A DNA stretch of 64,000 nt from Candidatus Dormibacteria bacterium (GTDB lineage Bacteria; Chloroflexota; Dormibacteria; DASZGP01): contig JBPCPW010000085.1 of assembly GCA_050998755.1 (NCBI GenBank), positions 19,672-83,671 on the forward strand. The letters are read 5' to 3'. The position numbers and the translations under genes were made by a program. Positions 4,176 to 39,112 of the stretch are shown piece by piece. A model generated the notes under the pieces. The model worked only from the letters and a program-made list of their open reading frames with translations, did no database searches and was not told the DNA's origin. Positions within the stretch are counted from its first letter, which is position 1, and the number at the start of each line of letters is the position of its first letter.

Positions 4176-4194
4176 TAGTGGACTGTCACGGCTG

Positions 4195-8567: not shown

Positions 8568-8601
8568 GGCTAGTCCCTCCTGATTTGTGACACAGGCTGC
8601 A

Positions 8602-10496: not shown

Positions 10497-12736
10497 TTCT
10501 TGGGCCCATTGCAGGTCGATACGTCCTGGAACCCGGACAGATTCTTGGTGTCGGAGACCGTGTTCAGCATCTTGTCCCAGTTGCTGCTGCTGATGTTCTT
10601 GACCTTGGCCTTGGCCTGGACGACGTAGCCGGCAATGTTGGCTACCTCCGACACCGCCGGGACGCAGGCCACCGAGACCAGGGCGATGTGCCAGTTGCGG
10701 GCGTCCGGGGGCTGGGGGCCGAGCACGTAGTCCACCAGCTTGGCGATGATGGTGGCAAACCAACAGAACGGACAGATGGTGCCCAGGAAGCCGAGGTCGA
10801 TCTTGAAGGCCCGTAGCGGATTGATGATGTTGTCGTAGAAGAACGAGTGGATCGCCGTGTAGATGGCGACGATGCTGTCGAAGAACCCCAGTAACACCCA
10901 GCACCAGCCAAACACCGAAGCGGGAAGGGTGTTGATCAGGGGAATCGGACCGCCAATCCTCTCGTAGACCGCGCCGCCGCTCTGGTCTCGCATGTTCTTG
11001 CCGTCGTCGGTCTTGGCAAAGTCGCAGAGGTCGGCCACCATGAGTCGGTCCTTTGTGCTGTCGGCTCGGTGCACGATCGCCTTGCTGGCGGTGATCGCAT
11101 AATCTGCGGTCGGGCCGTCCTTCCTGCCGGCCGCGTGGTAGGCCAACTGCTGCATGTAGCTCGGCTCGATCTCGCTGACCTCAAGAAAGTCCTGCACCAC
11201 GTCCTTGGTCTGCGCGTCAGCCCCCATGACGCTGGCTGGATGGTCGAACTTCTTCCACTCCGCCAGTGAGTTGACCAGGTTTCCCGCGTCGTCGGTGGGC
11301 TCGCCCGGCGGTTCCACCTCATCTCGATAAGTTGAGGTGTCGCGGTAGTCGACCGGGAGCTTGGGGTCGAGCGGGCCGGTTTTGACCAGCTGGGCGTGAT
11401 CTTTGTCCCATCCCCAGAACGCCCAGCAGGGGTTGGGGTCGGGTGTCGGCAAGGGGGGATTTGCCTTGGGGTCGGGGGGCGGAGGCGTCTTGCAGGCATC
11501 CGGGGCGTCGGCGTGGAACTGGCCGTCACATTTGAAGCCGAATTGCGTTGGTTGGCCGCTCGGCGCGACCTTGTTGGGATCCTTGGGGCAGTGGTTCAGC
11601 GGGGCGTCCGTGGGCTTGTAGCCATCGATCTTGGCGATGAAGTCTTTGACCTTCTGGTCCACGGTCTCGCCGCCAGTGTCCACCGCGATGTGGCGGAGGG
11701 ACGCCTCGGCGTCGTCCATCGCCTTCAGGGCATCGGTTTTGTCCTGGTCGCTTCCGTCAAACCGCTCCGGGCTGTCAGCCTCCTGCTTCTGGTTGATGTT
11801 GACCTTGATGCGCAGCTCATGGATCGCCTGGATCTGCTCGAAGTACCACGCCTGGACCTGCTCCTTGAACCACAGCCGCTCGTCACACTGCCGGTGCCAC
11901 TGCGTGCCTGTGGCGTCTGCCGGGGGAGTCAGGGGGTCGGTCCAGGCGGGCGGCGACGTGCACCCGGGTGTGTCCGGCCAGAGGTGGAAGGTGTCGCGGT
12001 CGGCCGATCCGCCACCGCGCAGCTCCTGGGTGGAAACCGGGCACGCCGGCTTGCCGGGCTGGCCGCAGTCCGATGCTGGTGGCGGCGTCTTGCCGCTGCC
12101 GCCCCAGATGTTGTGGAGTGCGCCCCAGTAGATCTGCGGTATCAGCGCCGGGGTGGCCTTGTCGTGGGCCTTGTCCGAGATCTGCAGGGCGTGTTCGGTG
12201 ATCGCCTGGATGTCCGCGAGGTTGTACTTGGTGACCGCCGCCTGGTCCAGGAAGTTGGTGGGCAGGATGAAGCCGATGTAGCCGTTGTTGGCCGCCACCA
12301 TGGTCGCGTTTATCGTTGCTAACACCTGTTTAGCGGCATTGAGGAGCTTGTTTATCGACTTCTTGATGTTGGCGAACGCCTTTTGGGCAGTTTTGGCTAT
12401 GTTTTTTATTACGTTGGCCACGGCTTGTATCACCGCTCCGAAGACGGACCCGACGTAGGGGATGGCGGAGATCGCCCGCCCGATCTGCAGCAACATCGAG
12501 GCCAGGCGCTGGATGAAGCCAAGGCCCCAGTCGATGAGGTCGAAGACCACCTCGTCGTTGATCACCGCGATGTAGGTCTCGGCCGCGGTTATCGCGGCGC
12601 CATCGCTGGCGGCCTGCATGCGCGTGGCCTGGCTGGTCTGGTTCCCGATGCCGGTGGCCATCACCACGACCATCACCATCAGCAGCGACGTCATGGCGGT
12701 GATCAGGGTGACGTTGCCGCGCTGCGGGTTCAGCAT
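10493..12736 (-). CDS. Giant TadG-like pilus-associated protein (747 aa) with C-terminal hydrophobic/Cys-rich region
   Basis: N-terminus MLNPQRGNVTLITAMTSLLMVMVVVMATGIGN...MQAASDGAAITAAE resembles the TadG N-terminal domain. The ATG at 12736 overlaps the upstream stop by 1 nt (TGATG). Confidence 0.7.
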   Translation of the reverse strand: MLNPQRGNVTLITAMTSLLMVMVVVMATGIGNQTSQATRMQAASDGAAITAAETYIAVINDEVVFDLIDWGLGFIQRLASMLLQIGRAISAIPYVGSVFGAVIQAVANVIKNIAKTAQKAFANIKKSINKLLNAAKQVLATINATMVAANNGYIGFILPTNFLDQAAVTKYNLADIQAITEHALQISDKAHDKATPALIPQIYWGALHNIWGGSGKTPPPASDCGQPGKPACPVSTQELRGGGSADRDTFHLWPDTPGCTSPPAWTDPLTPPADATGTQWHRQCDERLWFKEQVQAWYFEQIQAIHELRIKVNINQKQEADSPERFDGSDQDKTDALKAMDDAEASLRHIAVDTGGETVDQKVKDFIAKIDGYKPTDAPLNHCPKDPNKVAPSGQPTQFGFKCDGQFHADAPDACKTPPPPDPKANPPLPTPDPNPCWAFWGWDKDHAQLVKTGPLDPKLPVDYRDTSTYRDEVEPPGEPTDDAGNLVNSLAEWKKFDHPASVMGADAQTKDVVQDFLEVSEIEPSYMQQLAYHAAGRKDGPTADYAITASKAIVHRADSTKDRLMVADLCDFAKTDDGKNMRDQSGGAVYERIGGPIPLINTLPASVFGWCWVLLGFFDSIVAIYTAIHSFFYDNIINPLRAFKIDLGFLGTICPFCWFATIIAKLVDYVLGPQPPDARNWHIALVSVACVPAVSEVANIAGYVVQAKAKVKNISSSNWDKMLNTVSDTKNLSGFQDVSTCNGPKK

Positions 12737-13296
12737 CAGCAGTTCTGGTCCGGTGTCGGCACGCAGGACGGGGGAGGTTCGTACTGGTTGGCCAGCCGCG
12801 CCGCGACGCCGGTCTCCTGGAATGTCCCCAGCCTCGAGCCGTAGATCGAGGTGAGAACCTCCCATCCGGGAATCGTTGGGTGATAGGAGATGGTCACCGA
12901 TACCGCCATGTTGCAATAGAACTCGGTGTCCCCGATCTTGGGACCGGTGCTGACTCTCACCACGGTGGGCTTGGAGGCCATGCTCCGCATCATCGGCGAA
13001 TTCTGGTATTCGAGAGCGAGCACCGCCTCGGCGGAGGCCTTGGTGCCATTCTGGGCCGAGATGTCAGTTGGCGGACAGCCGCTGACCAGGTCCTTGGTGA
13101 GGTCGTGATTCTCCTTGGCGACGTGCCGCGCGGCATCGTAGGCCGCCTTCTGCTCCTGGATCCGCACCGAATAGAGAAGGCTGGCCGCGATGGTGATGAA
13201 GATGATCGCGATCAGTAGCGGCAGCACCAGCGCGAACTCGACCATCGCCTGGCCGCCGGCCTCACGCTGACCCCGCGGGCGGTGTGGGTGCGTCAT
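12736..13296 (-). CDS. TadE-like pseudopilin
   Basis: RGQREAGGQAMVEFALVLPLLIAIIFITIAASLLY. The start overlaps the flp stop (ATGA at 13293-13296). Confidence 0.8.
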   Translation of the reverse strand: MTHPHRPRGQREAGGQAMVEFALVLPLLIAIIFITIAASLLYSVRIQEQKAAYDAARHVAKENHDLTKDLVSGCPPTDISAQNGTKASAEAVLALEYQNSPMMRSMASKPTVVRVSTGPKIGDTEFYCNMAVSVTISYHPTIPGWEVLTSIYGSRLGTFQETGVAARLANQYEPPPSCVPTPDQNC

Positions 13297-13538
13297 TGGA
13301 GTGGGAGCTGCTGGTTGAACGTCTTGGTCAGCTTGAGGATCGCCTCTGGGCTGACTTCGTCGGGCAGCAATTGGATGTTGTAGGTGCTCTGGGCGTTGTC
13401 GATGTAGTGGAGGAACACGTCCGAGAACCCCATTTGACTAGCTGCGGCAAAGGCGACCACCACGGTGGCGCTGATCAGCGAGTACTCAAGCATCGCCTGT
13501 CCGCCCTGCTTGCGCAGACGGCGCGGGATCCCCTTCAC
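13293..13538 (-). CDS. flp: Flp/Fap family type IVb pilin precursor
   Basis: RKQGGQAMLEYSLISATVVVAFAAA carries the Flp G/xxxxEY processing motif followed by a hydrophobic helix. 81 aa. The GTG start overlaps the tadC stop (GTGA). Confidence 0.75.
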   Translation of the reverse strand: MKGIPRRLRKQGGQAMLEYSLISATVVVAFAAASQMGFSDVFLHYIDNAQSTYNIQLLPDEVSPEAILKLTKTFNQQLPLQ

Positions 13539-14419
13539 TTGTTGCCGATCTGCAGGAAGGCCAGGGAGCCGAGGATGATCAGCAGCGCGAGCATGTTGAT
13601 CATGGTGGGGAACGTCATCAGCACCGGCGCTCGCAGCGAGCGTGCCTTTACCTCCTGCTCGCGCTTGATGCGCAGCTCGACCGACTGACCCTTGAGCATG
13701 TCCTTGAGGTCGCGGCCGCCGACCTGGGTGGCCTGCCCCACGGCCGCTACCAGGAAGGTGAGGTCGTCGTTGCGGTTCTTGCGCAACAGCTCCTCCATTG
13801 CCGTACTCAAGCGTTCCTTCAATTGCGTGGTTCGCTGCACCACGTAGCCCAGCTCCTGGGCCAGGACCTCGCTCTGGAAGTAACGGCAGTAGTAGGCGAT
13901 GCCGGTGTCAATGGACGTGCGCTCGACCGCCAGCCCGATGACCTCTAGCGCCAGGGGGAGGGCGCGACTGATCTTGTTCTGGCGCAGCAGAGCCGCCTGG
14001 GCAATGGTGCCGTTGGGCGACCTGAAGCCGATGGCGAGCCCACCGACCAGGAACAGGACGGCGGCGATGATGTTGCCCAGGAGCAGGCCCACCACGAGGC
14101 CCAGCGCCCCGAGGATGGCCATCATCATCAGCTTCATCCGGGCCACGTCCTCGACGGACACTTCGCGGGCGACATCGGCCTGCTCCAGCTGGCGGGGAAT
14201 GTCGCTGCGCTTGACCAGCTCAACCAGGATGCCCAGCGCAGGCAGCCGGCGGCTCTGCCGCTGCAGCTTGAGAACCGCCGTCTTGTCGGTGGTCAGCGCC
14301 TCAGGCTCGGCGGCCTGCTGCTTCTTGCTGCGGCGCCTGCCGCGGATGAGGATCGCCGCTACGACCGCCACCAGGAGGACGAAGACGCCTACGACTATCA
14401 GCAGGGTTGTGGTGTCCAT
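13535..14419 (-). CDS. tadC: Tad pilus inner-membrane platform protein TadC-like (T2SS F-type domain)
   Basis: Polytopic membrane protein with N-terminal and C-terminal TM helices and a T2SSF-like cytoplasmic helical region. It sits after the tadB-like gene. Confidence 0.75.
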   Translation of the reverse strand: MDTTTLLIVVGVFVLLVAVVAAILIRGRRRSKKQQAAEPEALTTDKTAVLKLQRQSRRLPALGILVELVKRSDIPRQLEQADVAREVSVEDVARMKLMMMAILGALGLVVGLLLGNIIAAVLFLVGGLAIGFRSPNGTIAQAALLRQNKISRALPLALEVIGLAVERTSIDTGIAYYCRYFQSEVLAQELGYVVQRTTQLKERLSTAMEELLRKNRNDDLTFLVAAVGQATQVGGRDLKDMLKGQSVELRIKREQEVKARSLRAPVLMTFPTMINMLALLIILGSLAFLQIGNK

Positions 14420-14421
14420 CT

Positions 14422-15366
14422 CTAAGACTCGATCTGCTTGAGGATTCGCTTGGTGGCGAGCCGGCTGATGTAGTTCATGCCCAGCGAGATGATGATCACC
14501 ACGATGCCGACCACGGTGGTGAACAGCGGCGTGATGAATTTCGGTGTGATGAGGTAGATGAGCAGGACGAAGAACACCGGCAGGTAGGAGACGACGGTCG
14601 CCGTCGAGCGAACCTGGGATGTGACCGCCTCCAGCTCGCTGCGTCCGCGGATCTCATCCTGGATCGAGGAGGACAGGCTGCGCAGCAACCCGTAGGTCTC
14701 AAGTCCGACCTGCTGCCCGATCGCCAGGGCACTGGCGATGGTGTGCAGCTCTGGGTACGGCAGCCGCTCCGCCCAGATCTCAAACGCCTCGGCCTCGCTG
14801 ACCCGGAGCGCTGAGATGCGGTTGGCCAGCGCGATCAGCTCGCCCTTGATGGGGTCGGCCAGGTTGGGGGTGGTGGCCTCCAGGGCGTTGACGAAGTTGC
14901 GCCCTGCTGCCATGCCGCTGCTAACCAGCAGCAGCGCGTTTGGCAGCTGCAGCAGGAACTTGGCCCGGTATGCGCGCGCCCGCCGAAGGGAGAGCGAGTA
15001 GTCGATGGCAGGGCCCGCGAGCCCGACGATGATCGCCAGCACCGGGGTGTGGAAGATCACAAAGGCCATACCCAGCGCGATCAGGAAGATGGACACCTGC
15101 CGATCGAGGAACGGGCCCCACTGGAAGTCGGCTCCGACGTCGACTGGGCGGCGGTAGCGTTGCATGAACCCGGTGCCGCTCAGCGGCGAGAGCAGGCGCT
15201 CGGTCGGGCTGATATACCGTGCCGCCTCCGCCTCGGCCGCGCCGCCGCTGCCACCCGTGTGGGCCGCGTACGGGTTGGCCTTCGATGACCGCATCACCGG
15301 CAGGATCATGCTGATCACCAGGTAGACGAAGCCGATCCCCGCCAGCACCAGCCCGACGGTTGTCAT
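14422..15366 (-). CDS. tadB: Tad pilus inner-membrane platform protein TadB-like (T2SS F-type domain)
   Basis: [24 protein letters not shown] plus a T2SSF-like core. The ATG overlaps the cpaF stop (ATGA at 15363-15366). The ORF-track extension to 15762 was rejected. Confidence 0.78.
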
Positions 15367-16631
15367 GCGCCGATCTCCAGGGCGATCTTGGCCTCGCAGT
15401 CGGCGGGGTCCTTGACCCGGACGTACTCGCCGGTGAACTTCCCGTTCTCGTCCTGCCCGGTGCGCTGGAACTTGAAGATGGTCTCCACCCTCACCTCTCC
15501 CTTGTTGTCGATGCCACAGAGCTCCGCCACTTCGATGACGCGGCGCGAGCCGTCCGAGAGGCGCATGGTCTGCACGATCAGGTTGACGGCGCTGGAGATC
15601 TGCTTGCGGATGGCGGATACCGGCAGCTCCTTGGCCATCAGGATCATGGTCTCGAGCCGGCTGATGGTGTCCTCGGGGTTGTTGGCATGGACCGTCGAGA
15701 GCGAGCCGTCGTGGCCGGTGTTCATTGCCGTGAGCATGTCGAAGGCCTCCTCGCCGCGGCACTCACCGACGACGATGCGATCGGGGCGCATTCGCAGGGC
15801 GTTCTTGACCAGGTCGCGGATGCTCACCTCGCCCTGACCGGACAGGTTCGCGGGCCGTGCCTCGAGGCGCTTGATGAAGGGGTGGCGCAGCTGCAGCTCC
15901 GCCGCATCCTCGATGGTGATCACATGCTGGTGGTCGGGGATGAAGCTGGAGAGAATGTTCAGCAGCGTCGTCTTTCCGGAGCCGGTGCCGCCCGAGACCA
16001 GGATGTTCATCCGCGCCTTTACAGCGCGGGCCAGCCAGTCGGCCATGTCCTGGGTCATCGCGCCCATGTTGACCAGCTGCTCGACGCCCAGTTTGTCCTG
16101 GGAGAACTTGCGGATGTTGATCGAGATGCCGTCGATGGCCAGCGGCGGCATGACCACGTTCACGCGACTCCCGTCGGGCAACCGTCCATTCACCAGCGGG
16201 TTGGACTCGTTGGCGGGGCGGTTGAGGGGGCGCAGGATGACCTGGACGATCTGGTCCAGGTGAGTGTTGTCCTCGAAGACCACACTGGTGGGCTCAAGTT
16301 TGCCCCTTTTCTCGATGAACACCCGCTTGGGGCCGCTGACGATGATCTCGGTCACCGCCTCGTCGCGCAGCAGGTCGTCGAGTGGGCCGAAGCCGAAGAT
16401 GTTGTCGGTGATGTACTGGAGGACCTTCTCCCGGTCCTCGACGCCCAGGGCGTAGTCGTTCATCAAGCGTCCGACCACCACCGCCAGGTCCTTCTTGGCG
16501 CGCTCCGGCCTGGTCTTGACCAGTTCCGCGAAGGCCGGGTCCGCCAGTTGCTCGTCGAGAACCCGGCGCCGAAGCTCGGCCTTGATCGGGGTCAGGTCAC
16601 GCGGAGTTGCTGCCCGGACCGGCGCGGCCAC
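15363..16631 (-). CDS. tadA: Tad/Flp pilus assembly ATPase CpaF/TadA (T2SS E family)
   Basis: It has Walker [13 protein letters not shown], Walker B/Asp box ITIEDAAEL and a His box [13 protein letters not shown]. Start is GTG. Confidence 0.95.
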
Positions 16632-16731: not shown

Positions 16732-18306
16732 TCAGCGCGGACTGCGCCATAGGGCGGCGGCGCCGCCGGCAAGCAGGAGGAGGCCCAGGCCGAGCGCCAG
16801 GAGGGGCGGGGTGCCTGTCGTCTTGGGGGTTATGCCGGCCCTGGGCAGGGTCGGGACATAGGGAACGTAGATCACCACGTCCTGGACCGTGAACGATGGC
16901 GAGGGGCTGGGCGAGGGCGTGGTATCGGCTGCCTGGTACTCGAAAGCGCCGATGTCGCATTTCGTGCCCGTCCGGGCAGCAGCGCTGGCCCGTAGGATGC
17001 CGCGCTGGTCGCGGCTGGGCGGCGGGCACGGGCCGGCGACCGCGTCGGCGGCGGGGCTGGTGGGGCCGATGGCCCGGGTCCGGGTCGCGCCGCCGTTGTC
17101 TGCCAGCGGCCCCAGGCCGGCGCTGGTGGCCTGCTTGTCGCCTGCCGCGGTGAACAGGCAGGACAGCCCATCGTCGATGTTTGAGCCCCCGCTGGCCAGC
17201 GGGGGTCCCTTCGGGCTGGTGGTGTCCTCGATCTGGGCGCATTCGTCTAGAGGGTTGCCGTTGACGATGCTGCTCGTCAGCGTCGCCGAGGTCGAACCGA
17301 ACGCCTCGGCCATGACGGCGGCCCCCCGCAGCGGGGTGGGGGTTGCGACGTTCCTGGCCGCGCGGGGCCGAGCCTGGCCGAGGATGATCGGGTTAAGGCT
17401 GTTCGAGCTGAAGGTCACATTGGTCGCGGAGGTCGGGCCGCTGTAGCTGTACAGCCCTCCGCCGCGTTGGGCGTTGTTGCCGTCGATGGTGTCGTTGAGC
17501 AGGTGGAGTTCGGACGTCGCGTAGATCCCGCCACCGTCGCATAACGAAAGGCAGTGGTTGGAGGCAATGGTGGAGTTGTAGATGGTGTTTGGCGTGCTGG
17601 CGTAGACTCCGGCCCCGCTGGCGTCAGCGACATTGTTGCTGATGGTCACGTCGTGGAGGATGGAGGGCGGCCTGAAGGAGCCCATCAACGCGATCCCGCC
17701 ACCGTACCCGCCCACGGCCTGGGGGTCGGACCCGAGGATCGCCCGGTTGCCGGTCACCACGGAGTTGCTCAGGTCCAGCGACCCGTAATAGACCAGGATC
17801 CCACCGCCGACATTGCCGGGGTAGCTGGGGTCCGCTACGGCGGTCCCGCCTCGGACCGTTACCCCGCTGATCCGCACGGTGCTTTGGATATCGAAAACCC
17901 GGTCCTGGACATCGTGGGCGTCAGCGTGGCTCTGCTCGATGATGGTGGTGGCCGCCCCCGCGCCGACGATCTGGATCCCATCGACCACCAGCTCCAGGTC
18001 TCCGCCGGCCGCAGTGTCTGCGTCGGCTGGCACCGGCTCCGTCAGCACGTAGTCACCCGCCGGGAGGTTGATGATCGTGCCACCCGTGCGCCGGCTGTTG
18101 GCGAACTGGACGGCCTTGCGCAGGCTGCAGGGGTCGTGGCAGTCGGGGTGGGTGTTGCTGTTGGCGGTGCCGACGATGTCCAGCTTTGTGTTCACTGTGA
18201 CCTGCAGTGGCGCCGCGGCACTGGCGCTCACCACCACGGCCGCCGCCGCCGTCGCCACCCCCAGGACGATGAGCACCCAACCGAGCCTCTGCGCCACCGG
18301 TCTCAC
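16732..18306 (-). CDS. Secreted right-handed parallel beta-helix repeat protein with C-terminal sorting-signal-like tail
   Basis: Signal peptide: LGWVLIVLGVATAAAAVVVSASA. CSLRKAVQFAN is followed by repeated GGGI/GGGL-containing turns. The C-terminus reads LPRAGITPKTTGTPP, a hydrophobic stretch, then RSPR. GTG start overlaps the kinase stop (GTGA). Confidence 0.7.
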   Translation of the reverse strand: MRPVAQRLGWVLIVLGVATAAAAVVVSASAAAPLQVTVNTKLDIVGTANSNTHPDCHDPCSLRKAVQFANSRRTGGTIINLPAGDYVLTEPVPADADTAAGGDLELVVDGIQIVGAGAATTIIEQSHADAHDVQDRVFDIQSTVRISGVTVRGGTAVADPSYPGNVGGGILVYYGSLDLSNSVVTGNRAILGSDPQAVGGYGGGIALMGSFRPPSILHDVTISNNVADASGAGVYASTPNTIYNSTIASNHCLSLCDGGGIYATSELHLLNDTIDGNNAQRGGGLYSYSGPTSATNVTFSSNSLNPIILGQARPRAARNVATPTPLRGAAVMAEAFGSTSATLTSSIVNGNPLDECAQIEDTTSPKGPPLASGGSNIDDGLSCLFTAAGDKQATSAGLGPLADNGGATRTRAIGPTSPAADAVAGPCPPPSRDQRGILRASAAARTGTKCDIGAFEYQAADTTPSPSPSPSFTVQDVVIYVPYVPTLPRAGITPKTTGTPPLLALGLGLLLLAGGAAALWRSPR

Positions 18307-20174
18307 GTGGCCCCGAATCCTGCGCAGGCCCAGTACATCGGCTGCTCCGAGGAGAGGGTGTGCTGACCTGCGCCGTCAGTCCAGGACAGGGTGTAGGTGG
18401 CGCTTCCGTATACCGGGTTCATGGTGCGCGTGAACCCGGGCTGCGACTGCGGGGCCGAGGCCGTCGCGCCGTGCGTTCCCGCGGTCCCCGCGCGGATCGT
18501 GTCACTGACGTGGCCGCCGGATACCCTGGCCCCGTTCGCCCAGTTTATTGCCCACGTTATGGTCACCGGGATGTCGCCGGTGGATGGGTTGCTGAAGTCG
18601 TACTGCTCGGCGATGCTCCAACCACCGTCGAAGGTACAGTCCATGCCCCGACTGGACGGGTAGGCGGTGGACTGGCTGTAGTAGGGCTGGCCGTCGCTGT
18701 AAAACCCGCAAGTCAGGGTGGGGCTGGGCGTGCTGTAGTCAGAAGTGCACTGATCGTAATAGACGCGCTGGTTGCTGATATTGAGGGGGGCGGCCGGGTA
18801 CTTGTTGGCGATGATCACGAACGTGTGGCTGGGCGAAGGTACCGGGCGGGCGGCGATCGACCGCTGGGGGCTGGGGACGGTGGGGTTGGCGCTCGGTGCG
18901 TTGGCGCTCGGGGTGATGCCGGTCGGGCCGCCGGACGTCGGGGATGGCTCCGGACTGACCGAGGGGGCGGTCTCGGGGGAAGTGCTGGGGGTGACCTGAG
19001 GCGACGGTTTCGGCGTCGGGGAGGCCAAGGCAACCGCCCCGTTGGACGCCCGCGCGGACCCGCCGCCATTTGTGCTGTTGCCACCGGCGCTGCTCTTGTT
19101 GTGGAGCGCGAGGTAGCCACCGCCCACCGCCAGGACGGCAACCAGAGCGGCGCCGGCGATCCAGGCGCTGGCCCCCATCACCCCGCCGCTGCCCGCCGCC
19201 GCACCCGCAGCGCTGGCCACCGCGGCGGTGCCCACCGCGCCGGCCGCCGCCAGGCCACCGGCGGTGGCCAGCATCGCCAGCAGTCCCATACCGGCGCCGA
19301 CGGTCGCAGCGACCTTCTTCTTCACTGAGGAACGCTTCTCCCAGTCGGCGCCGTAGGCTTCGACCGCCGCGGCCTCCAGTGCGGTCAGCATCGCTTCAGC
19401 GCTCTGCGGCCGGTCGGCGGGGTCCTTGGCCAGGCCGCCCGCAAGCAGGCCGGTCATGGCGGGGCCGAGTTTGGGGTTGACGGTGTGCGCGTCCGGTACC
19501 GGAGCTTCCCGCTGCATCCGCATCACAGCGAGTGGGTTGTCAGCCACAAACGGCGGCCGCCCGGTAAGCAGTTCGAAGAGCACCGCACCGGCGGAGTAGA
19601 GGTCTGAACGCGCGTCCAGGGTGCCGCCGCCAACCATCTCCGGGCTCATGTAGGCAGGGCTACCTGCCGGCATGCCGCCGGCGGCCCCGGGCCCCGACTG
19701 GCTCGCAGCCTGGCCGAAGTCAGCCAGCTTGCTCACTCCCTCACCGTCCAGGAGCACGTTCTCAGGCTTGATGTCGCGGTGGATCAGGCCGAGGCTGTGG
19801 GCGTGTGCCAGTCCCTGCAGGGCACCCTTGATGACGCCCAGGGATTCCTCGGGGGTCAGCTCGCCGGAGTGCTGGACAAGTCCGCGAAGCGACGCACCTT
19901 CGATCAGCTCGCTGACCAGGTAGTCGTTCTTCTCACGCTGGAAGAAGTCGAAGACCCGCACGCAGTGGTCGTTGTCGAGGCGGGCCATGATCTCTGCCTC
20001 GGCGCGGAAACGCTCGCGGAAGACAGGGTCGGCGGTGAGCTCGGTGCTCAGCTCCTTGAGCGCCACCCGGCGATCGACGAATTCCTGGTAGGCGAGGTAA
20101 ACGGTGCCTGATGCACCGCGGCCCAGGACGCCCCGGACCTGGTAGTCGCCGATGTTGCTGGGAAGCGAAGACAA
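18303..20174 (-). CDS. Transmembrane Ser/Thr protein kinase (Hanks type) with Cys-containing extracellular domain
   Basis: Kinase motifs: [31 protein letters not shown] and [10 protein letters not shown] helix AWIAGAALVAVLAVGGGYLAL is followed by a Ser/Pro-rich linker and a roughly 180-aa ectodomain. Confidence 0.95.
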   Translation of the reverse strand: MSSLPSNIGDYQVRGVLGRGASGTVYLAYQEFVDRRVALKELSTELTADPVFRERFRAEAEIMARLDNDHCVRVFDFFQREKNDYLVSELIEGASLRGLVQHSGELTPEESLGVIKGALQGLAHAHSLGLIHRDIKPENVLLDGEGVSKLADFGQAASQSGPGAAGGMPAGSPAYMSPEMVGGGTLDARSDLYSAGAVLFELLTGRPPFVADNPLAVMRMQREAPVPDAHTVNPKLGPAMTGLLAGGLAKDPADRPQSAEAMLTALEAAAVEAYGADWEKRSSVKKKVAATVGAGMGLLAMLATAGGLAAAGAVGTAAVASAAGAAAGSGGVMGASAWIAGAALVAVLAVGGGYLALHNKSSAGGNSTNGGGSARASNGAVALASPTPKPSPQVTPSTSPETAPSVSPEPSPTSGGPTGITPSANAPSANPTVPSPQRSIAARPVPSPSHTFVIIANKYPAAPLNISNQRVYYDQCTSDYSTPSPTLTCGFYSDGQPYYSQSTAYPSSRGMDCTFDGGWSIAEQYDFSNPSTGDIPVTITWAINWANGARVSGGHVSDTIRAGTAGTHGATASAPQSQPGFTRTMNPVYGSATYTLSWTDGAGQHTLSSEQPMYWACAGFGAT

Positions 20175-20233: not shown

Positions 20234-21460
20234 CTACTTCTTGCCCGCGGCGCCCCCGACGCCGAGGAAGGTGGCCAGGCCGGCGACCGCTTTGCCCACG
20301 CCCGAGCTCGCGACCTTGGCATAGGGCTCGTGCTTTTCGACGAAGCCTTCCATGAACTTCTTGTCGTCGGGGATGGTCGCGGCGACGGCCACGGGCATGG
20401 GCACCTCCAGCTTCTTCTTGCTGCTGCGGTTGACCACCAGGAAGCAGCGGTCCTGCACCCGCAGGTCGCGGGCCTCGATCATCGGCCCCAGCACCAGGTT
20501 GAGCATCCGTGCCACCTTGATCTGGCTGGGGATGTCATCGGGGGTGACGACCAGGATGCGGTCGGACTGGAACAGCGCCGGGGCGGTGAACATGTCGACG
20601 GTGTTGGGCAGGTCGAGCACCACCACGTCGAAGTTGTTGGCCAGGATCTGGACCAGGGCTTCCATGTGAGTGGAAGGGTCGGCGTAGTCGTCGATGGCTG
20701 CTGGGTCGTCAAGGGCGCAGAGGATGTACAGGTTGTCCTTGCGGTAGCACTTGTTGAGCAGGATCTCCTCTGAGATCACCGCGCCGGCCTCCGCCGGGAC
20801 CCGTTCCATCTTGCCCTCGGCACGCACCAGGATCTCATCAACCAGCGGTTTCAGGCCGAGGACGCTGGACCGCTTCATCTCGGTGACGTCGAAGAAGTAG
20901 GACTGGCTGCCGTTCTGCAGGTCGAGGTCGACCAGGAGAACCCGAAGTGAGGCATCCTGGGCGATCTTCGAGGCCAGCGCGGCCGCCAGCAGGCTGGTGC
21001 CGGACCCACCGCGAGGGCTGTAGCAGGCAAACACCTGGCCCTTGCCACCGGACTTCCGCGGCTGCACCGCGTCGAGCTGGCCGGGGGCGGACAGCACGGG
21101 CATGCTGGGCATCGAGGATTGGGCCGGCGGGGTCGGTGCGAGGGGCGTTTCCATCGGTGACGCCATGGGGCTACCCATAGGCCCGGGTGCGGGGAAGCCC
21201 CCGGTGCCGTCAGATGGCGCGTCTGGCATCGGACTCGGCTCAAAGGAGGGTGCCGGGAAGGCAGGCGCGTCCAGCACCGCCGGCCCGGCGCTCCCGGTGG
21301 GCTCGCCCACCAGGCGGTAGGGGAACCGGGCGCTGTGGGCCTGCGCCGACTCGAGGTTGAGGAAGGCCGCCATGACCTGGTTGCCGGCGGAGGCCTGCTC
21401 GCTCACGATGCGCGTGAGTCGGGCGCGGTTGGGTGAATAGGCGACGACCTTGTCGGTCAT
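20234..21460 (-). CDS. TadZ/CpaE-like ParA/MinD-fold protein with degenerate Walker A
   Basis: VFACYSPRGGSGTSLLAAALA...VLLVDLDLQNGS fits the CpaE/TadZ ATPase-like core. RGGSGTS replaces KGGxGK[ST]. An N-terminal domain of about 55 aa and a Pro-rich linker precede it. Confidence 0.7.
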   Translation of the reverse strand: MTDKVVAYSPNRARLTRIVSEQASAGNQVMAAFLNLESAQAHSARFPYRLVGEPTGSAGPAVLDAPAFPAPSFEPSPMPDAPSDGTGGFPAPGPMGSPMASPMETPLAPTPPAQSSMPSMPVLSAPGQLDAVQPRKSGGKGQVFACYSPRGGSGTSLLAAALASKIAQDASLRVLLVDLDLQNGSQSYFFDVTEMKRSSVLGLKPLVDEILVRAEGKMERVPAEAGAVISEEILLNKCYRKDNLYILCALDDPAAIDDYADPSTHMEALVQILANNFDVVVLDLPNTVDMFTAPALFQSDRILVVTPDDIPSQIKVARMLNLVLGPMIEARDLRVQDRCFLVVNRSSKKKLEVPMPVAVAATIPDDKKFMEGFVEKHEPYAKVASSGVGKAVAGLATFLGVGGAAGKK

Positions 21461-21482: not shown

Positions 21483-23255
21483 TTAGGGGCAGCGATACTG
21501 TACGCCCGCGGCGTTGGAATCGAGCGCGGTCGGCTTCAGAACCTTGAGGTGGGCGGCACCGCTGGTGCTGCCGTTGCCGGTGTAGGTGAACTGCAGCGCG
21601 ACGTCAAGCTCCTTCTGGCCGCTCTGCACGTTCTGGATGGTATCGGGGCCTGCCGCCGGCGTTCCGTCGGGCTGGATCCAGTGGTAGGTGATATCCCCGG
21701 AGCCTCCGTTGAGCAGGATCTTGCCGATGAATTTGTACTGGGCCTGGGGGCAATGGCCAACAGCGGGGTCGGCAGCGACCTGCACGCCGGTGACGACGAC
21801 CGCCGGGCCCGATGTCCGCACCACGAAGTACCAGAACGCGGCGGCGGCAAGCAGCGCGAGGATCAGCACGAGGACCAGGGCGCGCAACAGGCGCGCCGCG
21901 AACCCCCGGCCCTGTTTGGTTTTCGGCGGCGTGTAGACGGGCGCCTGGACCACCGGCATGGAGAATGCCGGTAGTGCTGGGAGCGGTGCCGCGGCCGGAT
22001 GCGCGGCCGGCGGGGGCACGAACGACGGCGCGCCCGTCGGCTGACCGGCGTGGATCGACTGGGGTGGTTGGATCACTGTCGAGTCACCCCCGACCGGGGC
22101 TCCGTGCACCATGGTCTCGTCACCCATCGGCTGGACCATTGTCGCGTCGGGAGCGGCGCCGATCGCCATGGTGTCGTCGGGCGAGGCGGACGGCCGGACC
22201 ATCGTCTCCTCGCTGCCCGCCATCAGGGCCGTCGTGTCGATTGGCGAGATAGTCCACTGCGGGGGATCCGGCGGCAGCGGGGTGGCGCCGGCGACCGAGG
22301 TGGCGGCAGGTAGTGGAGCAGTCGGTACGGTCTGGGTTGCCCCCGCTTCCTGCGCGACCGCCTGCGGCGAAGGGGGGGCAAGCGCGGCCGCGATCACCGA
22401 GAGGTCGGACTCTCCCGCCCACCCGGGCCAGGACTTCTGCGCGGCGTCGGCCAGCTTGACCCAGAAATCGCCCGCGCTCTTGGGCCTTTTCTTGGGGTCC
22501 TTGGCCAGGCCGGCGAGCAACACGTCCTCCACCTTGGATGGAAAGCCGGGGACCAACTGGCTGGGCCGCGGCGGCGGCGTGGAGATGTGGGCTTCGACGC
22601 TGGCCATGACGTTTCCAGGCACCGGCGGGAAGGGCAGCCTGCCCACCAGCATCTCGAAGCTCATGACCGCGAGGGAATACACATCGGCGCGCTGGTCGAT
22701 CTCCGCCGCGCCCGCGGCCTGCTCCGGGGACATGTACGACGGCGTGCCCAGGATGGTGCCCACCTGGGTCACAAAATTGCCCTGGCCCCCCATCATCTTG
22801 ACCAGCCCGAAGTCGCCGAGCTTGCACATGCCGGTGGTGGTCACGAAGATATTGCCGGGCTTCAGGTCACGGTGGAGGATGCCCTGCTTGGAGGCGTATT
22901 CCAGCGCCGCTGCCACTTCGCTGATAACCCGCAGGGACTGCCCGGTGGTCAGTTTGTTGCCCGTCATGACCGCCTTGAGTGAGGGGCCATGGACGTACTC
23001 CTGGACCATGTAGAGGTCGCTGCCGACGGCCTCCAGGTTGTAGATGCCGACCACGTTGGGGTGGTTCATCTTGGCCAGCGCGCGGGCCTCGCGACGGAAG
23101 CGCTCCAGGGCCTGGGGGTCGCCGTTCCACGCGCCGAGCACCTGCTTGATGGCGACAAAGCGGTTGAGGGCGGTCTGCCGGGCGAGGTACACCGAGCCCA
23201 TGGCGCCCTTGCCCACGGCCTGGATGAACTCGTACCCGGCGAGGTTGTTACTCAC
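21483..23255 (-). CDS. Transmembrane Ser/Thr protein kinase (Hanks type)
   Basis: Kinase motifs: GKGAMGSVY, VAIKQV, HRDLKPGNIFV, DFGLVK and TPSYMSPE. TM helix LVLVLILALLAAAAFWYFVV is followed by a roughly 110-aa ectodomain ending in RCP. Confidence 0.95.
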   Translation of the reverse strand: MSNNLAGYEFIQAVGKGAMGSVYLARQTALNRFVAIKQVLGAWNGDPQALERFRREARALAKMNHPNVVGIYNLEAVGSDLYMVQEYVHGPSLKAVMTGNKLTTGQSLRVISEVAAALEYASKQGILHRDLKPGNIFVTTTGMCKLGDFGLVKMMGGQGNFVTQVGTILGTPSYMSPEQAAGAAEIDQRADVYSLAVMSFEMLVGRLPFPPVPGNVMASVEAHISTPPPRPSQLVPGFPSKVEDVLLAGLAKDPKKRPKSAGDFWVKLADAAQKSWPGWAGESDLSVIAAALAPPSPQAVAQEAGATQTVPTAPLPAATSVAGATPLPPDPPQWTISPIDTTALMAGSEETMVRPSASPDDTMAIGAAPDATMVQPMGDETMVHGAPVGGDSTVIQPPQSIHAGQPTGAPSFVPPPAAHPAAAPLPALPAFSMPVVQAPVYTPPKTKQGRGFAARLLRALVLVLILALLAAAAFWYFVVRTSGPAVVVTGVQVAADPAVGHCPQAQYKFIGKILLNGGSGDITYHWIQPDGTPAAGPDTIQNVQSGQKELDVALQFTYTGNGSTSGAAHLKVLKPTALDSNAAGVQYRCP

Positions 23256-23292: not shown

Positions 23293-24993
23293 TCAGCAGA
23301 CCCACTGGACGGGCGTTAGCGCCATCGTGTGTTGCGTGGTGTCCGTCCAGTCGAGCGTGAAGAAGATCGTGCCGAGCGCCTGGTAATTGAAATTGGCGGT
23401 CGTGACCGGGCTGAACTGCGTCGGTCCGTTGCCGGGCGCCCCAGCGTAGCTTCGGCCGGGCGGCTGCACGTAGTACTGATAGGAGGCGGGAGACGGGACG
23501 ATTTTCTGGGGGGTCGGCCTTTGCTGGGTCACTGTCCACTGGACATGGACCAAGACTGGATTGCTTCCGGAAACGTAGGCATACCGGAACGTTTCCTGCG
23601 CAACGAAATAGCTACCGGGGAAGCATGTGCCCCCGTTGGCTGCCGACCCCGGTGTATATGGTCTGCAGGTAGGGGTGGCTCCCGGGACGCAGAACTGCAT
23701 GGCTATGCCAAGGGTAGAGACATTCATGTTGGTCGGCGGGGGCGGGGGCGGCGGGTTGGTCTGTGTAGGAGTCGGCTGCACCGTCCGGGTCGGGCTTGGG
23801 GACGGCGTCGGTGCCGCTGATGGCGACGGCGACGGCGACGGGGATGGCGAAGGCGAGGGGCTGGCGTCAGGCGTCGGCGACGGGGTGTCGGTTGGGCTGG
23901 GGGTTGGCGCCGACGACGGGCTCGGTGTTGCCACCACGACGGCAACACCGCCCTTGTTGTTCCCCCCGAACAGCCCGCTGGCGAAGCCGAACACGATGAA
24001 CCCGAGGAGGGCGATGCCCGCTATCCCACCGGCGATCAGCCATTTGCTGACGCCGCCCACCGCGGCCTCTCCAACCGCCCCCGTTGCCGCTGCGGCGCTG
24101 GCGGCGCCGACCAGCAGCAGGCCGAGGGCGGCCATCGTCGCCTCGACCAGGCGCTTGATCGAGGAGCGCTTCTCCCAGTCCGCGCCGTAGCCCGCGACCG
24201 CGGCGGCCTCCAGCTCGTCGAGGAACTGCTCGGCGGTGCGTTGGCGATCCCCGGGGTTCTTGGCCATCGCCCGGCTCACCAGGCCGCTGACCTCGGGTGG
24301 CAGGTCGCTGTTCAACGATCGCGGGTCCGGAACGGGGTCGTTGAGCTGCTTGCGCATCACCGCCAGCGGGTTGTCCCCGGTGTAGGGCGCCCGGCCGGTG
24401 AAGAACTCGAAGAGCACCGCCCCCAGCGCGTAGATGTCCGTACGCAGGTCGACCAGCCCCCCGGAGATCATCTCCGGGCTCATGTACGCCGGGCTGCCGG
24501 CGGGCATGCCTCCGGCCGCCCCGGGACCGCTCGCCACCAGGGCCTGCCCGAAGTCCGCCAGCTTGCTCACGCCCTGGGTGTCGGCCAGCATGTTCTCGGG
24601 CTTGATGTCGCGATGGATGAGCCCCTTGCCGTGGGCGTATGCCAGGCCGCTCAGCGCCCCCTTGAGAACGCCCAGCGATTGCTCGGGGCTGAGGTGACCG
24701 GCGTGATCCAGCACCTGGCGCAGCGATGCCCCACGAACGTACTCGCTGACCAGCACGGCGCGCCCGCCCTCCTCGAAGAAGTCCCAGACCTTGACACAGT
24801 TGGGATCGTCCAGCGACGCCATGATCCGGGCCTCGGCCCGGAAGCGCTCGATGAAGGTGGGGTCCAGGGCCAGCGCCGGCGCCAGCTCCTTGAGCGCCAC
24901 CTCGCGATCCAGCGCGATCTCTCGCGCCAGGTAAACGGTCCCCGTGGCCCCCGTCCCCAGGGTGCCGAGAACCTCGTAGTTTTCAGCCTTCAA
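23293..24993 (-). CDS. Transmembrane Ser/Thr protein kinase (Hanks type), paralogue of 18303-20174
   Basis: Kinase motifs: [32 protein letters not shown] and [11 protein letters not shown] start overlaps the GNAT stop (TTGA). A TM helix, a (Ser-Pro)n linker and an ectodomain ending in WVC follow. Confidence 0.95.
23818..23860. repeat. In-frame hexanucleotide repeat GGCGA(C/A/T) encoding (Ser-Pro)n linker on the minus strand
   Basis: tgatggcgacggcgacggcgacggggatggcgaaggcgagggg. The protein reads [15 protein letters not shown]. Confidence 0.85.
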
Positions 24994-25541: not shown

Positions 25542-26717
25542 ATGCCTGTCAGCCGCCGCACCAAGCGCGTCCTGGAGACCCTGAGCCCCTTCCTCGAGGG
25601 CATGATCGGCCAGGACCGCAGCCACCCCAACCCCTGCGACTTCATGGCGGGCAATCCCCAGGAGATTGCCGGGCGCGAGTACGTGGAGACCCTGCAGAAG
25701 TGGCTCGAGCCCAAGAACCCGCAGTGGTTTGGTTACGGCACCCCGACCCAACCCGCCCAGGAGGCCGCCGCCGAAGGCCTGACGGCGGAGTTGGGCATCA
25801 ATTTCGAGCCTGCCGACATCCTGCTGTGCCGGGGCGCCCACGCCGGCCTCGCCGGGATCCTCAACCTGGTGGTCGACCCCGGCGACGAGGTCATCTACAT
25901 ATCTCCGCCGTGGTTCTTCTACGAGGCCATGATCCTCAGCGTCGGCGCCGAGCCGGTCAAGGTCTACGTCAAGCGTGATGGGTGGGACCTCGACGTGCCG
26001 GCGATCGAGGCGGCGATCACTCCCAGGACGGCCGCGGTGCTGATCAACACGCCCAACAACCCGACCGGCAAGGTCTACCCGCCGGCAACGCTGGCGGCCC
26101 TGGCCGAGGTCCTCACCCGCAAGAGCGCCGAGCGGGGGCGGCCGATCTACATCGTCTCGGACGAGGCCTACAGCCGGATCCTGTTCCCGGGAACGGAGAT
26201 GTTCACGCCGGCGAGCCATTACCCCAACAGCCTGCTGGTTCATACCTACAGCAAGACCGCCCTGGCCCCCGGACAGCGGCTGGGGTACGTCGCGCTGCCG
26301 CCTGACATGCCGGATCGCGACGAACTGCGGATGTCGTGGTTCGCGTCGTCGCTGGGCAGCAGCAATACCCTGCCCGACGCGGTGATGGTGTATTCGCTGC
26401 CCGAGATCGACCACATGTCGATCGACCTCCCGGCGCTCGCCCGCCGGCGCGATTCGATGGTCTCGGCGTTGCAGGAGATGGGCTATGAGTTGCACTCACC
26501 CGAGGCCACCTTCTACGTGATGCCCAAGGTGCCGGGTGGCGACGAGGGCGGTTTCGTCAAGCGGCTGGCCAGGGACGGGGTGCTGGTGTTGCCGGGGCGG
26601 GCCTGCGACCTGCCCGGCTACTTCCGTATTTCGCTGACCGCCACCGACGACATGGTCCAGCGCTCGCTGCCGGTCTTCGAAGCCGCGATCAAGGAGCTCC
26701 AGCCACTCGCCAGCTGA
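25542..26717 (+). CDS. PLP-dependent aminotransferase, class I/II
   Basis: INTPNNPTGKVY, DEAYSRI and the lysine motif YSKTALAPGQRLGY. Confidence 0.9.
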   Translation: MPVSRRTKRVLETLSPFLEGMIGQDRSHPNPCDFMAGNPQEIAGREYVETLQKWLEPKNPQWFGYGTPTQPAQEAAAEGLTAELGINFEPADILLCRGAHAGLAGILNLVVDPGDEVIYISPPWFFYEAMILSVGAEPVKVYVKRDGWDLDVPAIEAAITPRTAAVLINTPNNPTGKVYPPATLAALAEVLTRKSAERGRPIYIVSDEAYSRILFPGTEMFTPASHYPNSLLVHTYSKTALAPGQRLGYVALPPDMPDRDELRMSWFASSLGSSNTLPDAVMVYSLPEIDHMSIDLPALARRRDSMVSALQEMGYELHSPEATFYVMPKVPGGDEGGFVKRLARDGVLVLPGRACDLPGYFRISLTATDDMVQRSLPVFEAAIKELQPLAS

Positions 26718-26745: not shown

Positions 26746-28389
26746 GTGGAGGGACAGATCGGCAAATACCAGGTCCGAGGAACGCTGGGCAGCGGCGCCT
26801 ACGGGACCGTCTACCTGGGATGGCAGGCCGACCTCCAGCGACCGGTGGCCATCAAGGAGCTGGGCCAGGCGATGGTGGCCGACCCCGCGTTCCTCGAGGC
26901 CTTCCGCGAGGAGGCCCGGATCATGGCGCTCCTCGACCACCCCAACTGCGTCCGGGTCTTCGACTTCATCGAGACCGGGACCCAGGCGTTCCTGGTCTCC
27001 GAGTTCGTCGATGGCGCCTCCCTGCGGGCGGTGGTGCTGTCATCCGGCTCGCTGGCGCCGCAACAATCACTGGGGGTGCTGAAGGGCTCGCTCAAGGGGC
27101 TCGGTCACGCCCACCAGCTTGGGCTGGTCCACCGCGACATCAAGCCCGAGAACATCCTGGCCGATCGAGAGGGCACCTCCAAGCTGGCTGACTTCGGCCA
27201 GTCGTACTTCGGCGGCGGCCCGGGCGCGGCGGGATCGCTGACCGGCTCACCACCTTACATGAGCCCAGAGCAGGCGCAGGGGGCACCTTGTGACGCCCGC
27301 AGCGACCTCTACTCCGCCGGGGCAATCCTCTTCGAGTTCCTCACCGGCCGCCCGCCGTTCGTGGCCGACAACCCCATGGCGATCATGCGGATGCACGTCA
27401 GCGAGCAGCCGCCCGACCCGCGGAAGTTGAATAAGAAACTGCCCAAGCAGGCCACCGCGATGATGGCGCGGGCCCTGGCCAAGGACCCCGGCAAGCGCTT
27501 CCAATCGGCAGACGAGATGCTGGCGTCGCTGGAGGACACCGCCCGCCACGGGTACGGCAAGAACTGGGAGGAATCGGCAGCGATCAAGGGGCTGGTGGCG
27601 ACCGCGGCAGCCGGCGCGGCAATGGCGGTCGGGGCGGCTGGAGTGGCCGCGGCCGGGGCCGGTGCGGCGGGCGCGTCGGGTACGGTCGCCGTGGGTAGCG
27701 CCACGGTGGGGGCGAGCGGAACGGCCGCAGCGGGCACGACCGCCGGGATTTCGGGCACAACGATTGCCGCCGGCGCCGGGGTCGCGGCGGTTGCAGGTGC
27801 CGCCGCGGTGGCCTTCGTGGTGGTCACCAACGCGCTCTTCGGCCACAACCTGGTGGTCAACGGCAACGCCGAGCAGGGCAGTGGCGCCGTCGACGCCTCG
27901 CAGGTGGTCAAGCCGGAGCATTGGACCGCGACCGGTCCCTTCACGGTGCTCAAGTACGGCTCACCCGAGTTCCCTTCGGCGACCGATTCCGGGCCCCCTG
28001 ACCGTGGCGACTACCTCTTTGCCGGCGGTCCAAACAACTCGAGGTCCAGCGCCACCCAGACCATCGACCTCTCGGGCGGGTCAGGGGGCATCGATGGCGG
28101 CGGTAAGCGGTTCAACCTGAGCGGGTATCTCGGCGGCTTTGGCGGGCAGAATGACGCGGCGACGATCTCCGTCAGGTTCCAGGATGCCGCCGGCCGCGAT
28201 ATCGGAGACGCGCACATCGGCCCCGTCACCGACCTCACCCGCAAGGGCAAAACCGGCCTGGTCAAATCCCAGACCAGTGGGGCGGTGCCCAAGGGAGCGC
28301 GCAAGGCGGTGATCACCATCGTCATGAACCGCACCGACGGCGTGTACAACGACGGCTACGCCGACGATATCTCGCTCGTAATCAGCTGA
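26746..28389 (+). CDS. Transmembrane Ser/Thr protein kinase with galactose-binding-like (jelly-roll) extracellular domain
   Basis: Kinase motifs: [32 protein letters not shown] and SPPYMSPE. An Ala/Gly-rich TM region precedes the C-terminal NGNAEQG...ATQTIDL...NLSGYLGG...YADDISLVI. Start is GTG. Confidence 0.92.
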   Translation: MEGQIGKYQVRGTLGSGAYGTVYLGWQADLQRPVAIKELGQAMVADPAFLEAFREEARIMALLDHPNCVRVFDFIETGTQAFLVSEFVDGASLRAVVLSSGSLAPQQSLGVLKGSLKGLGHAHQLGLVHRDIKPENILADREGTSKLADFGQSYFGGGPGAAGSLTGSPPYMSPEQAQGAPCDARSDLYSAGAILFEFLTGRPPFVADNPMAIMRMHVSEQPPDPRKLNKKLPKQATAMMARALAKDPGKRFQSADEMLASLEDTARHGYGKNWEESAAIKGLVATAAAGAAMAVGAAGVAAAGAGAAGASGTVAVGSATVGASGTAAAGTTAGISGTTIAAGAGVAAVAGAAAVAFVVVTNALFGHNLVVNGNAEQGSGAVDASQVVKPEHWTATGPFTVLKYGSPEFPSATDSGPPDRGDYLFAGGPNNSRSSATQTIDLSGGSGGIDGGGKRFNLSGYLGGFGGQNDAATISVRFQDAAGRDIGDAHIGPVTDLTRKGKTGLVKSQTSGAVPKGARKAVITIVMNRTDGVYNDGYADDISLVIS

Positions 28390-37322: not shown

Positions 37323-37434
37323 GCTTGGGGACTCCTCTCCGCAGGCTTCTGTGCCAGTGGGGCCATAGGTTCCGCTGCTGTCCCTCTCTCTATATGGCAC
37401 ACTGGGCCAACGTACTCGGGCGTCAGTGTAGAAC

Positions 37435-37501: not shown

Positions 37502-39112
<1,611 letters not shown>

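Follow-up and report, generated by a model that had tools for sequence, protein, structure and literature searches.

A TadZ/CpaE-type protein with a lysine-free P-loop encoded beside Ser/Thr kinases in a Tad pilus operon of Candidatus Dormibacteria

The cpaE gene and the Tad operon

The window analyzed here is a 64,000-nucleotide stretch of Candidatus Dormibacteria DNA (GenBank assembly GCA_050998755.1, contig JBPCPW010000085.1, positions 19,672 to 83,671), and the gene under study, cpaE, encodes the TadZ/CpaE assembly protein of a Tad (Flp) adhesive-pilus operon in this uncultured soil bacterium. The original prediction, made from the letters of the window, had described the product as a TadZ/CpaE-type protein of the ParA/MinD group. 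This assignment was borne out by the AAA_31 family match, the fold, and the Tad operon, and the two strings quoted for the core of the protein, VFACYSPRGGSGTSLLAAALA and VLLVDLDLQNGS, were both found. In Pfam, the 408-residue product matched AAA_31 with an E value of 2.1e-10 (41.2 bits; cut-off, 27), and the ParA-type models AAA_31, ParA, and CbiA begin at residues 142–147. Orthologues of the gene carry the source name CpaE family.

The genes follow one another in the order stkB, cpaE, cpaF, tadB, tadC, flp, tadE, tadG, and tadE, with an FHA-domain gene further on; in the source genome (G000), stkA and a beta-helix protein gene lie between cpaE and cpaF (Table 1). The operon was syntenic in eight other genomes, and cpaF was 82–95% identical in the related loci. 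The beta-helix gene was limited to G000 and G156 among these loci, and cpaE is directly followed by cpaF in G175, G159, G163, and G171. The true start of tadB is probably internal, near the cpaF stop, and its orthologue has 314 residues. No Pfam match was obtained for the Flp-type prepilin, whose EY-containing segment we take to be the G/xxxxEY Flp processing motif.

The distribution of cpaE was narrow. Orthologues were present in nine of the 301 sampled genomes of the class, the source included, and all belonged to one family (f1), where eight of the 10 other genomes had one; none was found in the 290 genomes of four other families. A sample of the phylum yielded two orthologue-bearing genomes among 151. 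In a library of 1.84 billion proteins, six representatives matched at 1e-30 or better, and the next best match was near 1e-18.

Table 1. Features of the cpaE locus (positions in the window; aa, amino acid residues; pLDDT, predicted local distance difference test)
Feature	Position	Strand	Basis
cpaE/tadZ-type gene, 408 aa	20234..21460	-	Open reading frame, Pfam AAA_31, ParA/MinD fold
Walker-A-like motif SPRGGSGTS, aa 148-156	20993..21019	-	Translation of the reverse complement, alignments
N-terminal mini-domain, aa 1-53, beta-alpha-beta-alpha-beta	21302..21460	-	AlphaFold2 pLDDT ~95, strands/helices at 4-52
Hypervariable Pro/Ala-rich disordered linker, aa 54-135	21056..21301	-	pLDDT 45-59
ParA/MinD-type nucleotide-binding domain, aa 136-400	20261..21055	-	Conservation, AlphaFold2, fold matches
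STK_B (stkB), receptor Hanks Ser/Thr kinase, HRDLKPGN	21483..23255	-	Pfam Pkinase 5e-48, transmembrane segment ~aa 450-480
STK_B juxtamembrane Thr-motif repeats EETMV, DDTMA, DATMV, DETMV, DSTVI, aa ~348-398	22062..22214	-	
STK_A (stkA), receptor Ser/Thr kinase between cpaE and cpaF	18303..20174	-	Pfam, catalytic motifs
STK_C, receptor Ser/Thr kinase	23293..24993	-	Pfam, catalytic motifs
STK_D, receptor Ser/Thr kinase, divergent	26746..28389	+	Pfam, catalytic motifs
Aminotransferase gene, precedes STK_D	25542..26717	+	
Choice-of-anchor Q / CSLREA beta-helix protein between STK_A and cpaF	16732..18306	-	NCBIfam NF041518 7.8e-17
cpaF/tadA secretion ATPase	15363..16631	-	Pfam T2SSE 3.7e-60
tadB platform protein	14422..15762	-	Pfam T2SSF at aa 277-402
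tadC platform protein	13535..14419	-	Pfam T2SSF, synteny
Flp-type prepilin (flp), 81 aa, …GGQAMLEYSLISATVVVAF…, contains …GGQAMLEY…	13293..13538	-	Translation
TadE-like pseudopilin	12736..13296	-	Pfam TadE 1.8e-12
TadG-like large pilus-associated protein	10493..12916	-	Pfam Tad 1.1e-4
Second TadE-like protein, start probably internal	9924..10904	-	Pfam TadE at aa 144-184
FHA-domain protein, Cys-rich C-terminal part	7614..8660	-	Pfam FHA 2.4e-13

A lysine-free P-loop with a conserved nucleotide site

The canonical MinD/ParA motif KGGxGK[ST] requires two lysines, and neither is found in CpaE, for which MinD models scored far below their cut-offs (TIGR01968, 33.5 against 212.9). Arg150 occupies the position of the signature lysine and Thr155 that of the P-loop lysine, as had been predicted. 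The translation and three kinds of alignment agree on this point: the Pfam models begin just ahead of the loop, YSPRGGSGTS pairs with YGGKGGVGKS of a paralogue from the same genome in BLASTP, and the loop pairs with KGGDGGS of 3ea0 and with KGGTGKT of MinD in PDB profile alignments. The rest of the protein offers no alternative P-loop. The sole other xGGxG string, SGGKGQVF at approximately residue 137, was rejected as a P-loop because it precedes strand 1 and closes a stretch that is disordered in the model. NF047398, which describes a variant AAA ATPase with a KGGVGR motif, gave a score of 37 against a cut-off of 90, the motif here being RGGSGT.

The available excerpt of a preprint on the Bdellovibrio Tad machine gives K/RGGXGXS/T as the TadZ Walker-A-like consensus (bioRxiv 10.64898/2026.07.08.737194), and RGGSGTS of CpaE matches it exactly. 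To extend the comparison beyond orthologues, relatives from two sequence searches were aligned to the orthologue profile, 36 orthologue identifiers were removed, and the 190 sequences with an aligned xGGxGxx were tallied. The signature position was occupied by K in 159 of them, followed by R (24), G (4), Q (2), and L (1), and the P-loop lysine position by T (55), A (46), K (38), V (20), C (12), S (10), R (5), G (3), and N (1). The P-loop lysine was missing in 152 of the 190 relatives and both lysines in 30, shares that may be somewhat inflated, since R and T stand at the two positions in the profile by which these relatives were picked. The printed consensus does not depend on this sample. A lysine-free loop is a known hallmark of TadZ/CpaE; it carries no weight alone and is no sign of a loss of function.

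Within the orthologues (n = 35), R was present at the signature position in 34 (one has S) and T at the P-loop lysine position in all. The residues G151, G152, G154, T155, D178, D180, D283, and R345 were invariant in 29 aligned orthologues that are 49–85% identical to the source CpaE, where position 156 was always S or T and R150 was conserved in at least 90%. An alignment of 126 diverse relatives left G151, G152, G154, and D178 invariant and D283 at least 90% conserved. By their mapping on MinD/ParA, we take the invariant residues to be the P-loop backbone, Mg ligand, switch I, and Walker B. Since the remaining residues of the nucleotide site are invariant, the pocket of CpaE is not in decay, and, judged from the alignments, the atypical Walker-A motif of TadZ is fixed as RGG[SA]GT[ST] in this lineage and is no degraded P-loop. 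The earlier expectation that ATP binding or hydrolysis is lost or altered therefore stands only in part: the family norm and the invariant site speak against a loss of binding, while altered hydrolysis is plausible.

Domain architecture and predicted dimer

Structure prediction, which the original prediction had proposed as a check, gave an AlphaFold2 model with a ParA/MinD fold and a pLDDT above 94 for residues 140–400. The closest solved structure was 3ea0 (Foldseek, 1.4e-12; Z, 27.4; root-mean-square deviation, 2.1 Å over 232 residues), which also had a profile E value of 1e-55 against the alignment of CpaE-like proteins. ATP-bound MinD reached a Z of approximately 24 against the model, and 3fkq, the TadZ of Eubacterium rectale, reached 20.2. 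In the PDB profile matches, 3fkq was absent with the orthologue alignment and ranked 37 with a wider alignment.

These matches also bear on whether CpaE could be a positioning ATPase, such as an Ssd- or MinD-like septum-site protein, that has no role in the pilus. TIGR03815 (septum site-determining protein Ssd) was indeed the best NCBIfam match (3.5e-13), and MinD structures are close fold matches. However, the 49.4 bits obtained with TIGR03815 are far below its cut-off of 154.45, the TadZ-like 3ea0 is closer in structure than MinD, and in related genomes cpaF, tadB, tadC, and flp come after the gene. We regard a septum-site or other positioning role as very improbable.

The nucleotide-binding domain holds switch I D178/D180, Walker B D283, N344-R345, and a terminal helix at residues 387–398. 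In the AlphaFold2 model, this helix is followed by GG…KK, and the region is conserved in orthologues; the helix could be a candidate for membrane binding. At the other end of the protein, the N-terminal mini-domain is conserved among CpaE orthologues. Residues 1–59 matched nothing in Pfam even at an E value of 10, and no Response_reg match was obtained. The structural alignment with 3fkq spans residues 1–401 of the CpaE model (288 aligned) and so extends over the N-terminus, for which reason the mini-domain may be a remnant of the receiver-like domain of TadZ. The string KVVAYSPNR, in the N-terminal strand and turn of the mini-domain, resembles QVFACYSPRGG of the ATPase domain, by chance or through an old internal duplication.

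A homodimer of residues 136–408 modelled with ATP and Mg scored 0.76, compared with 0.00 for the best control. In calibration, 20 of 30 solved pairs attained this mark, as did one of 23 single chains; the calibration did not extend to self-made alignments or ligands, both of which were used for CpaE. Three runs agreed in at least 95% of their contacts, with a partner pLDDT of at least 90. The interface comprises residues 149–152, 182–185, 252–256, 285–289, and 311–326, and the P-loops face each other (151:151 and 152:150). The modelled interface would correspond to the sandwich-dimer geometry of the family, which is a likeness and not proof of binding; the pass may reflect model memory, because similar complexes have already been solved. 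K315 and R318 at the modelled interface are candidates to compensate for the lost lysine.

Comparison with characterized TadZ and CpaE proteins

The TadZ proteins of E. rectale (3FKQ) and Aggregatibacter actinomycetemcomitans resemble CpaE in their ParA/MinD domain and in the location of the gene just upstream of tadA/cpaF. Their Walker A also lacks the canonical lysines, and both are reported, in the excerpts available, to be ATP-binding and dimeric. According to two papers that cite the 2012 work of Xu et al., E. rectale TadZ shows ATPase activity although both lysines have been lost, a lysine of an adjacent helix compensating (PMC10482377), and its deviant Walker A binds ATP for dimerization (PMC13170226). 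On the other hand, the sequence identity between CpaE and E. rectale TadZ is only about 15–18%. TadZ has a full atypical receiver domain, whereas a 52-residue unit and an 80-residue Pro/Ala-rich spacer are found here, and CpaE, unlike the E. rectale and A. actinomycetemcomitans proteins, is flanked by Hanks kinases.

CpaE of Caulobacter crescentus belongs to the same family and shares the operon position and a C-terminal helix with possible membrane binding. The excerpt available describes a ring of six CpaE dimers around CpaF (PMC13170226). The receiver domain of Caulobacter CpaE, thought to mediate dimer–dimer contacts, is truncated in the source CpaE, and any ring of the latter must therefore form differently. 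The ParA-family ATPase of Chlorobium tepidum (3EA0) likewise has a P-loop without lysine (KGGDGGS), but it keeps the signature lysine and consists of the ATPase domain alone. We know of no functional data for 3EA0.

Flanking kinases and shared threonine motifs

All four kinases of the window have a transmembrane segment, and their Gly-loop, VA[IL]K, HRD, DFG, and SPE motifs are intact. A tblastn search identified eight kinase loci in the 94.6%-complete assembly, and these four, half of the total, lie within 10 kb of cpaE. In the source genome, STK_B and cpaE share a strand, and the stop codon of STK_B precedes cpaE by 22 nt. A spacing of at most 22 nt, or an overlap with the cpaE start, was found in seven of seven evaluable genomes from three genera (G000, G156, G041, G167, G159, G163, and G171); G175 and G151, which begin at a contig edge, were left out. 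The position just after a kinase is thus constant for cpaE in the sampled genomes. STK_A, by comparison, is confined to part of the genus in its conservation; G000, G156, and G041 are the only genomes that have it between cpaE and cpaF. The original prediction had placed the gene between two Ser/Thr kinases; this is correct for the source genome, and the upstream kinase recurs throughout, but the position between two kinases is only partly conserved because STK_A is limited to some loci.

G167 enters the counts for the upstream kinase only. Its cpaE is followed by two other kinases and an FHA-cyclase fusion, and cpaF is not on its 9.7-kb contig. The fusion (locus L001, 6690-7625), which adjoins the kinases downstream of cpaE, joins an FHA domain to an adenylate/guanylate cyclase domain. 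Returning to the source genome, the extracellular C-terminal ends of STK_A and STK_C are alike (…TLSWTDGAGQHTL…YWAC and …QWVC), which suggests a common sensor domain with no assigned family.

The threonine motifs of the STK_B juxtamembrane region (Table 1) are spaced about ten residues apart, and the FHA protein contains EETMI, EETMV, and SETAVF after its FHA domain. The whole genome, read in six frames, was scanned for the pattern [DE][DEQS]T[AM][VIM] in stop-to-stop frames of 100 residues or more (3,268,932 residues). Only 29 matches were obtained, and the only two frames with two or more copies were those of STK_B and the FHA protein. In related loci, one to six copies were counted in STK_B orthologues, with six PDETMVRP-like repeats in that of G159, and two or three in FHA proteins. 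The orthologues of these two proteins are not independent samples, and the genome-wide scan is the fair control. In G041, G175, and G159, relatives of the FHA protein occupy the same end of the locus, which makes four genomes with the source.

Phosphorylated juxtamembrane regions have been described for other Hanks kinases, according to the excerpts available (PMC12077195; bioRxiv 10.1101/2025.11.01.686061). Membrane Hanks kinases and FHA genes also occur inside secretion-machine clusters, namely those of the PpkA/Fha-type type VI secretion system and, as the excerpt available has it, of a novel type VII secretion system (PMC11217815). The Tad locus is likened to the kinase-FHA control of these systems by analogy only. 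Searches of the full-text literature returned no case of kinase or FHA control of Tad, TadZ, or CpaE, and the type VII paper was the only one found that mentions TadZ otherwise. Among the papers listed on pili of Dormibacterota, none dealt with Tad pili in its title or in the opening lines of its abstract.

Taken together, the conserved receptor kinase, the FHA protein, their shared threonine motif, and the truncated receiver domain point to a plausible phosphothreonine control of pilus assembly or activity. Functional control of the pilus by the kinase–FHA pair is a tentative proposal, possible but short of probable. The competing explanation is that CpaE is a TadZ/CpaE of the usual kind and that its kinase neighbours lie there incidentally and serve another process. 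The synteny of kinase and cpaE is shallow, because orthologues are limited to one family and to few genomes of the class, and no Tad component is known to have a demonstrated phosphosite. Against incidental neighbourhood stand the short or overlapping same-strand junction of STK_B and cpaE in every evaluable genome across three genera, the FHA protein at the far end of the gene string in four genomes, and the fact that STK_B and the FHA protein are the only frames of the genome with repeated [DE]ET[MA]V. We consider incidental neighbours rather unlikely.

Several further observations weigh against phosphothreonine control of an ATP-binding CpaE and, in part, favour incidental neighbours. STK_A is missing in four of eight related loci (G175, G159, G163, and G171). 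No phosphatase gene was present among the open reading frames scanned for families, a scan of the window that was not exhaustive for phosphatases. The threonine motif was defined only after it had been noticed, and it does not occur in the linker of the source CpaE or of its closer relatives. Only five of 26 full-length orthologues have a similar linker sequence, E[EQ]TA[VM][FY]A; they all come from one sister subclade and are 57–64% identical to the source CpaE. The composition of the profile behind the 190 relatives and the calibration of the dimer score, both given above, have to be counted on the same side.

The linker and nucleotide use

The original prediction had proposed the Ser/Thr/Pro-rich linker of CpaE as a phospho-acceptor region. 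At approximately residues 54–125, the linker of the source protein contains 28% Pro, 15% Ala, and 19% Ser+Thr, and among full-length orthologues it is 23–84 residues long with 23–34% Pro and 15–38% Ala. Pro/Ala richness comes first and Ser/Thr richness second. Ser+Thr amounts to 0–17% in other orthologues, two of which have none, and no Ser/Thr column was conserved across orthologues. The linker was accordingly rejected as a conserved phospho-acceptor.

The linker also enters the question of whether CpaE might be a pseudo-ATPase, that is, a static scaffold that makes no use of nucleotide and is switched through phosphorylation by the flanking kinases, for instance in the linker. The absence of both lysines and of the receiver domain, the kinase adjoining cpaE in seven of seven evaluable genomes, the Ser+Thr content of the source linker, and the five orthologues whose linker motif resembles those of STK_B and the FHA protein are compatible with such a scaffold. 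However, a dead pocket would not stay invariant (G151, G152, G154, S/T156, D178, D180, D283, and R345) down to 49% identity, lysine-free P-loops are the norm in TadZ/CpaE, and the solved E. rectale TadZ is reported, in the excerpts cited above, to bind ATP. The modelled dimer would moreover join P-loop to P-loop, and the linker Ser/Thr residues are unconserved. A pseudo-ATPase thus appears quite improbable. The suggestion that phosphorylation replaces nucleotide switching found no support.

Paralogues in the same genome

A second Tad-like locus was identified on contig C75 of the same genome (L007, 237-3938), with genes for a CpaB/RcpC protein, a CpaE-like protein with receiver and ParA domains, and a CpaF-like ATPase. 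The CpaE-like paralogue (L007, 1036-2574) has 512 residues; its receiver domain (Pfam, 6e-30) and its KGGVGKS loop are both canonical. It resembles CpaE in lying between CpaB/RcpC and CpaF-like genes and is 25% identical over the ATPase domain, but it differs in having the receiver domain and both lysines. No kinases were seen near it in the 3.9 kb examined. Further CpaF-like matches were located at C75 10813-11781 and C93 3484-4455. Several other ParA/MinD/Mrp-like frames of the genome also read KGGVGK[ST]. The organism thus retains the canonical loop in families that use it, and the lysine-free loop is specific to this TadZ type.

A protein with receiver and ParA domains on contig C4 (L024, 8007-9230), whose RGGSGKS loop has Arg at the signature position and keeps the P-loop Lys, was rejected as a Tad member, as it is an orphan with no Tad locus. 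Its neighbours encode a glycosyltransferase, an HtrA-like protease, and a two-component pair. Two closely spaced LAGLIDADG homing-endonuclease reading frames lie on the same contig (L024, 5226-5786 and 6799-7320), possibly in introns or inteins of a gene nearby. A 575-residue frame on contig C30 (23571-25295; L022) contains the string YRGGTGTST and has no Pfam family. Elsewhere in the window are genes for a zf-HC2 anti-sigma-like protein with a Pro-rich region (2277-4370), a 1054-residue protein with CarboxypepD_reg repeats (34272-37436), and GroEL (37502-39112).

Proposed role of CpaE

Because the gene belongs to a Tad/Flp operon, CpaE is read as a dimeric scaffold of the CpaF motor that binds ATP and hydrolyses it slowly. 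It would bind ATP-Mg through the backbone of its glycine-rich loop, S156, D178/D180, and D283, and would form a nucleotide-sandwich dimer in which R150 may replace the signature lysine across the interface. Hydrolysis of ATP would be slow or would never occur, and the protein would sit near the membrane as a scaffold surrounding the CpaF motor, as in Caulobacter. It is quite likely that CpaE is an ATP-binding TadZ/CpaE protein. The whole account, an ATP-binding TadZ/CpaE scaffold of the Tad operon with phosphothreonine control included, is the best explanation and in our view a reasonably probable one.

Signalling by Ser/Thr kinase and FHA protein that acts on the Tad machine, possibly instead of a receiver input of the paralogue type, fits the data better than the replacement of nucleotide switching by phosphorylation. 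In a more specific version, the receiver input of the receiver-less CpaE would have been swapped for a phosphothreonine input: STK_B would autophosphorylate its [DE]ET[MA]V repeats, the FHA protein bearing the same motif would dock there, and the complex would gate the recruitment of CpaE or the assembly of its ring at CpaF, in sister genera also through the E[EQ]TAV[FY]A site of the linker. This version is possible but less likely than not; if true, it would represent the first Tad pilus under the control of a Hanks kinase and an FHA protein. Should the coupling prove functional, phosphothreonine/FHA control, known from type VI secretion and suggested for type VII, would extend to Tad pili, and the two Tad loci in one genome would offer a natural pair for comparing how signals enter the TadZ scaffold.

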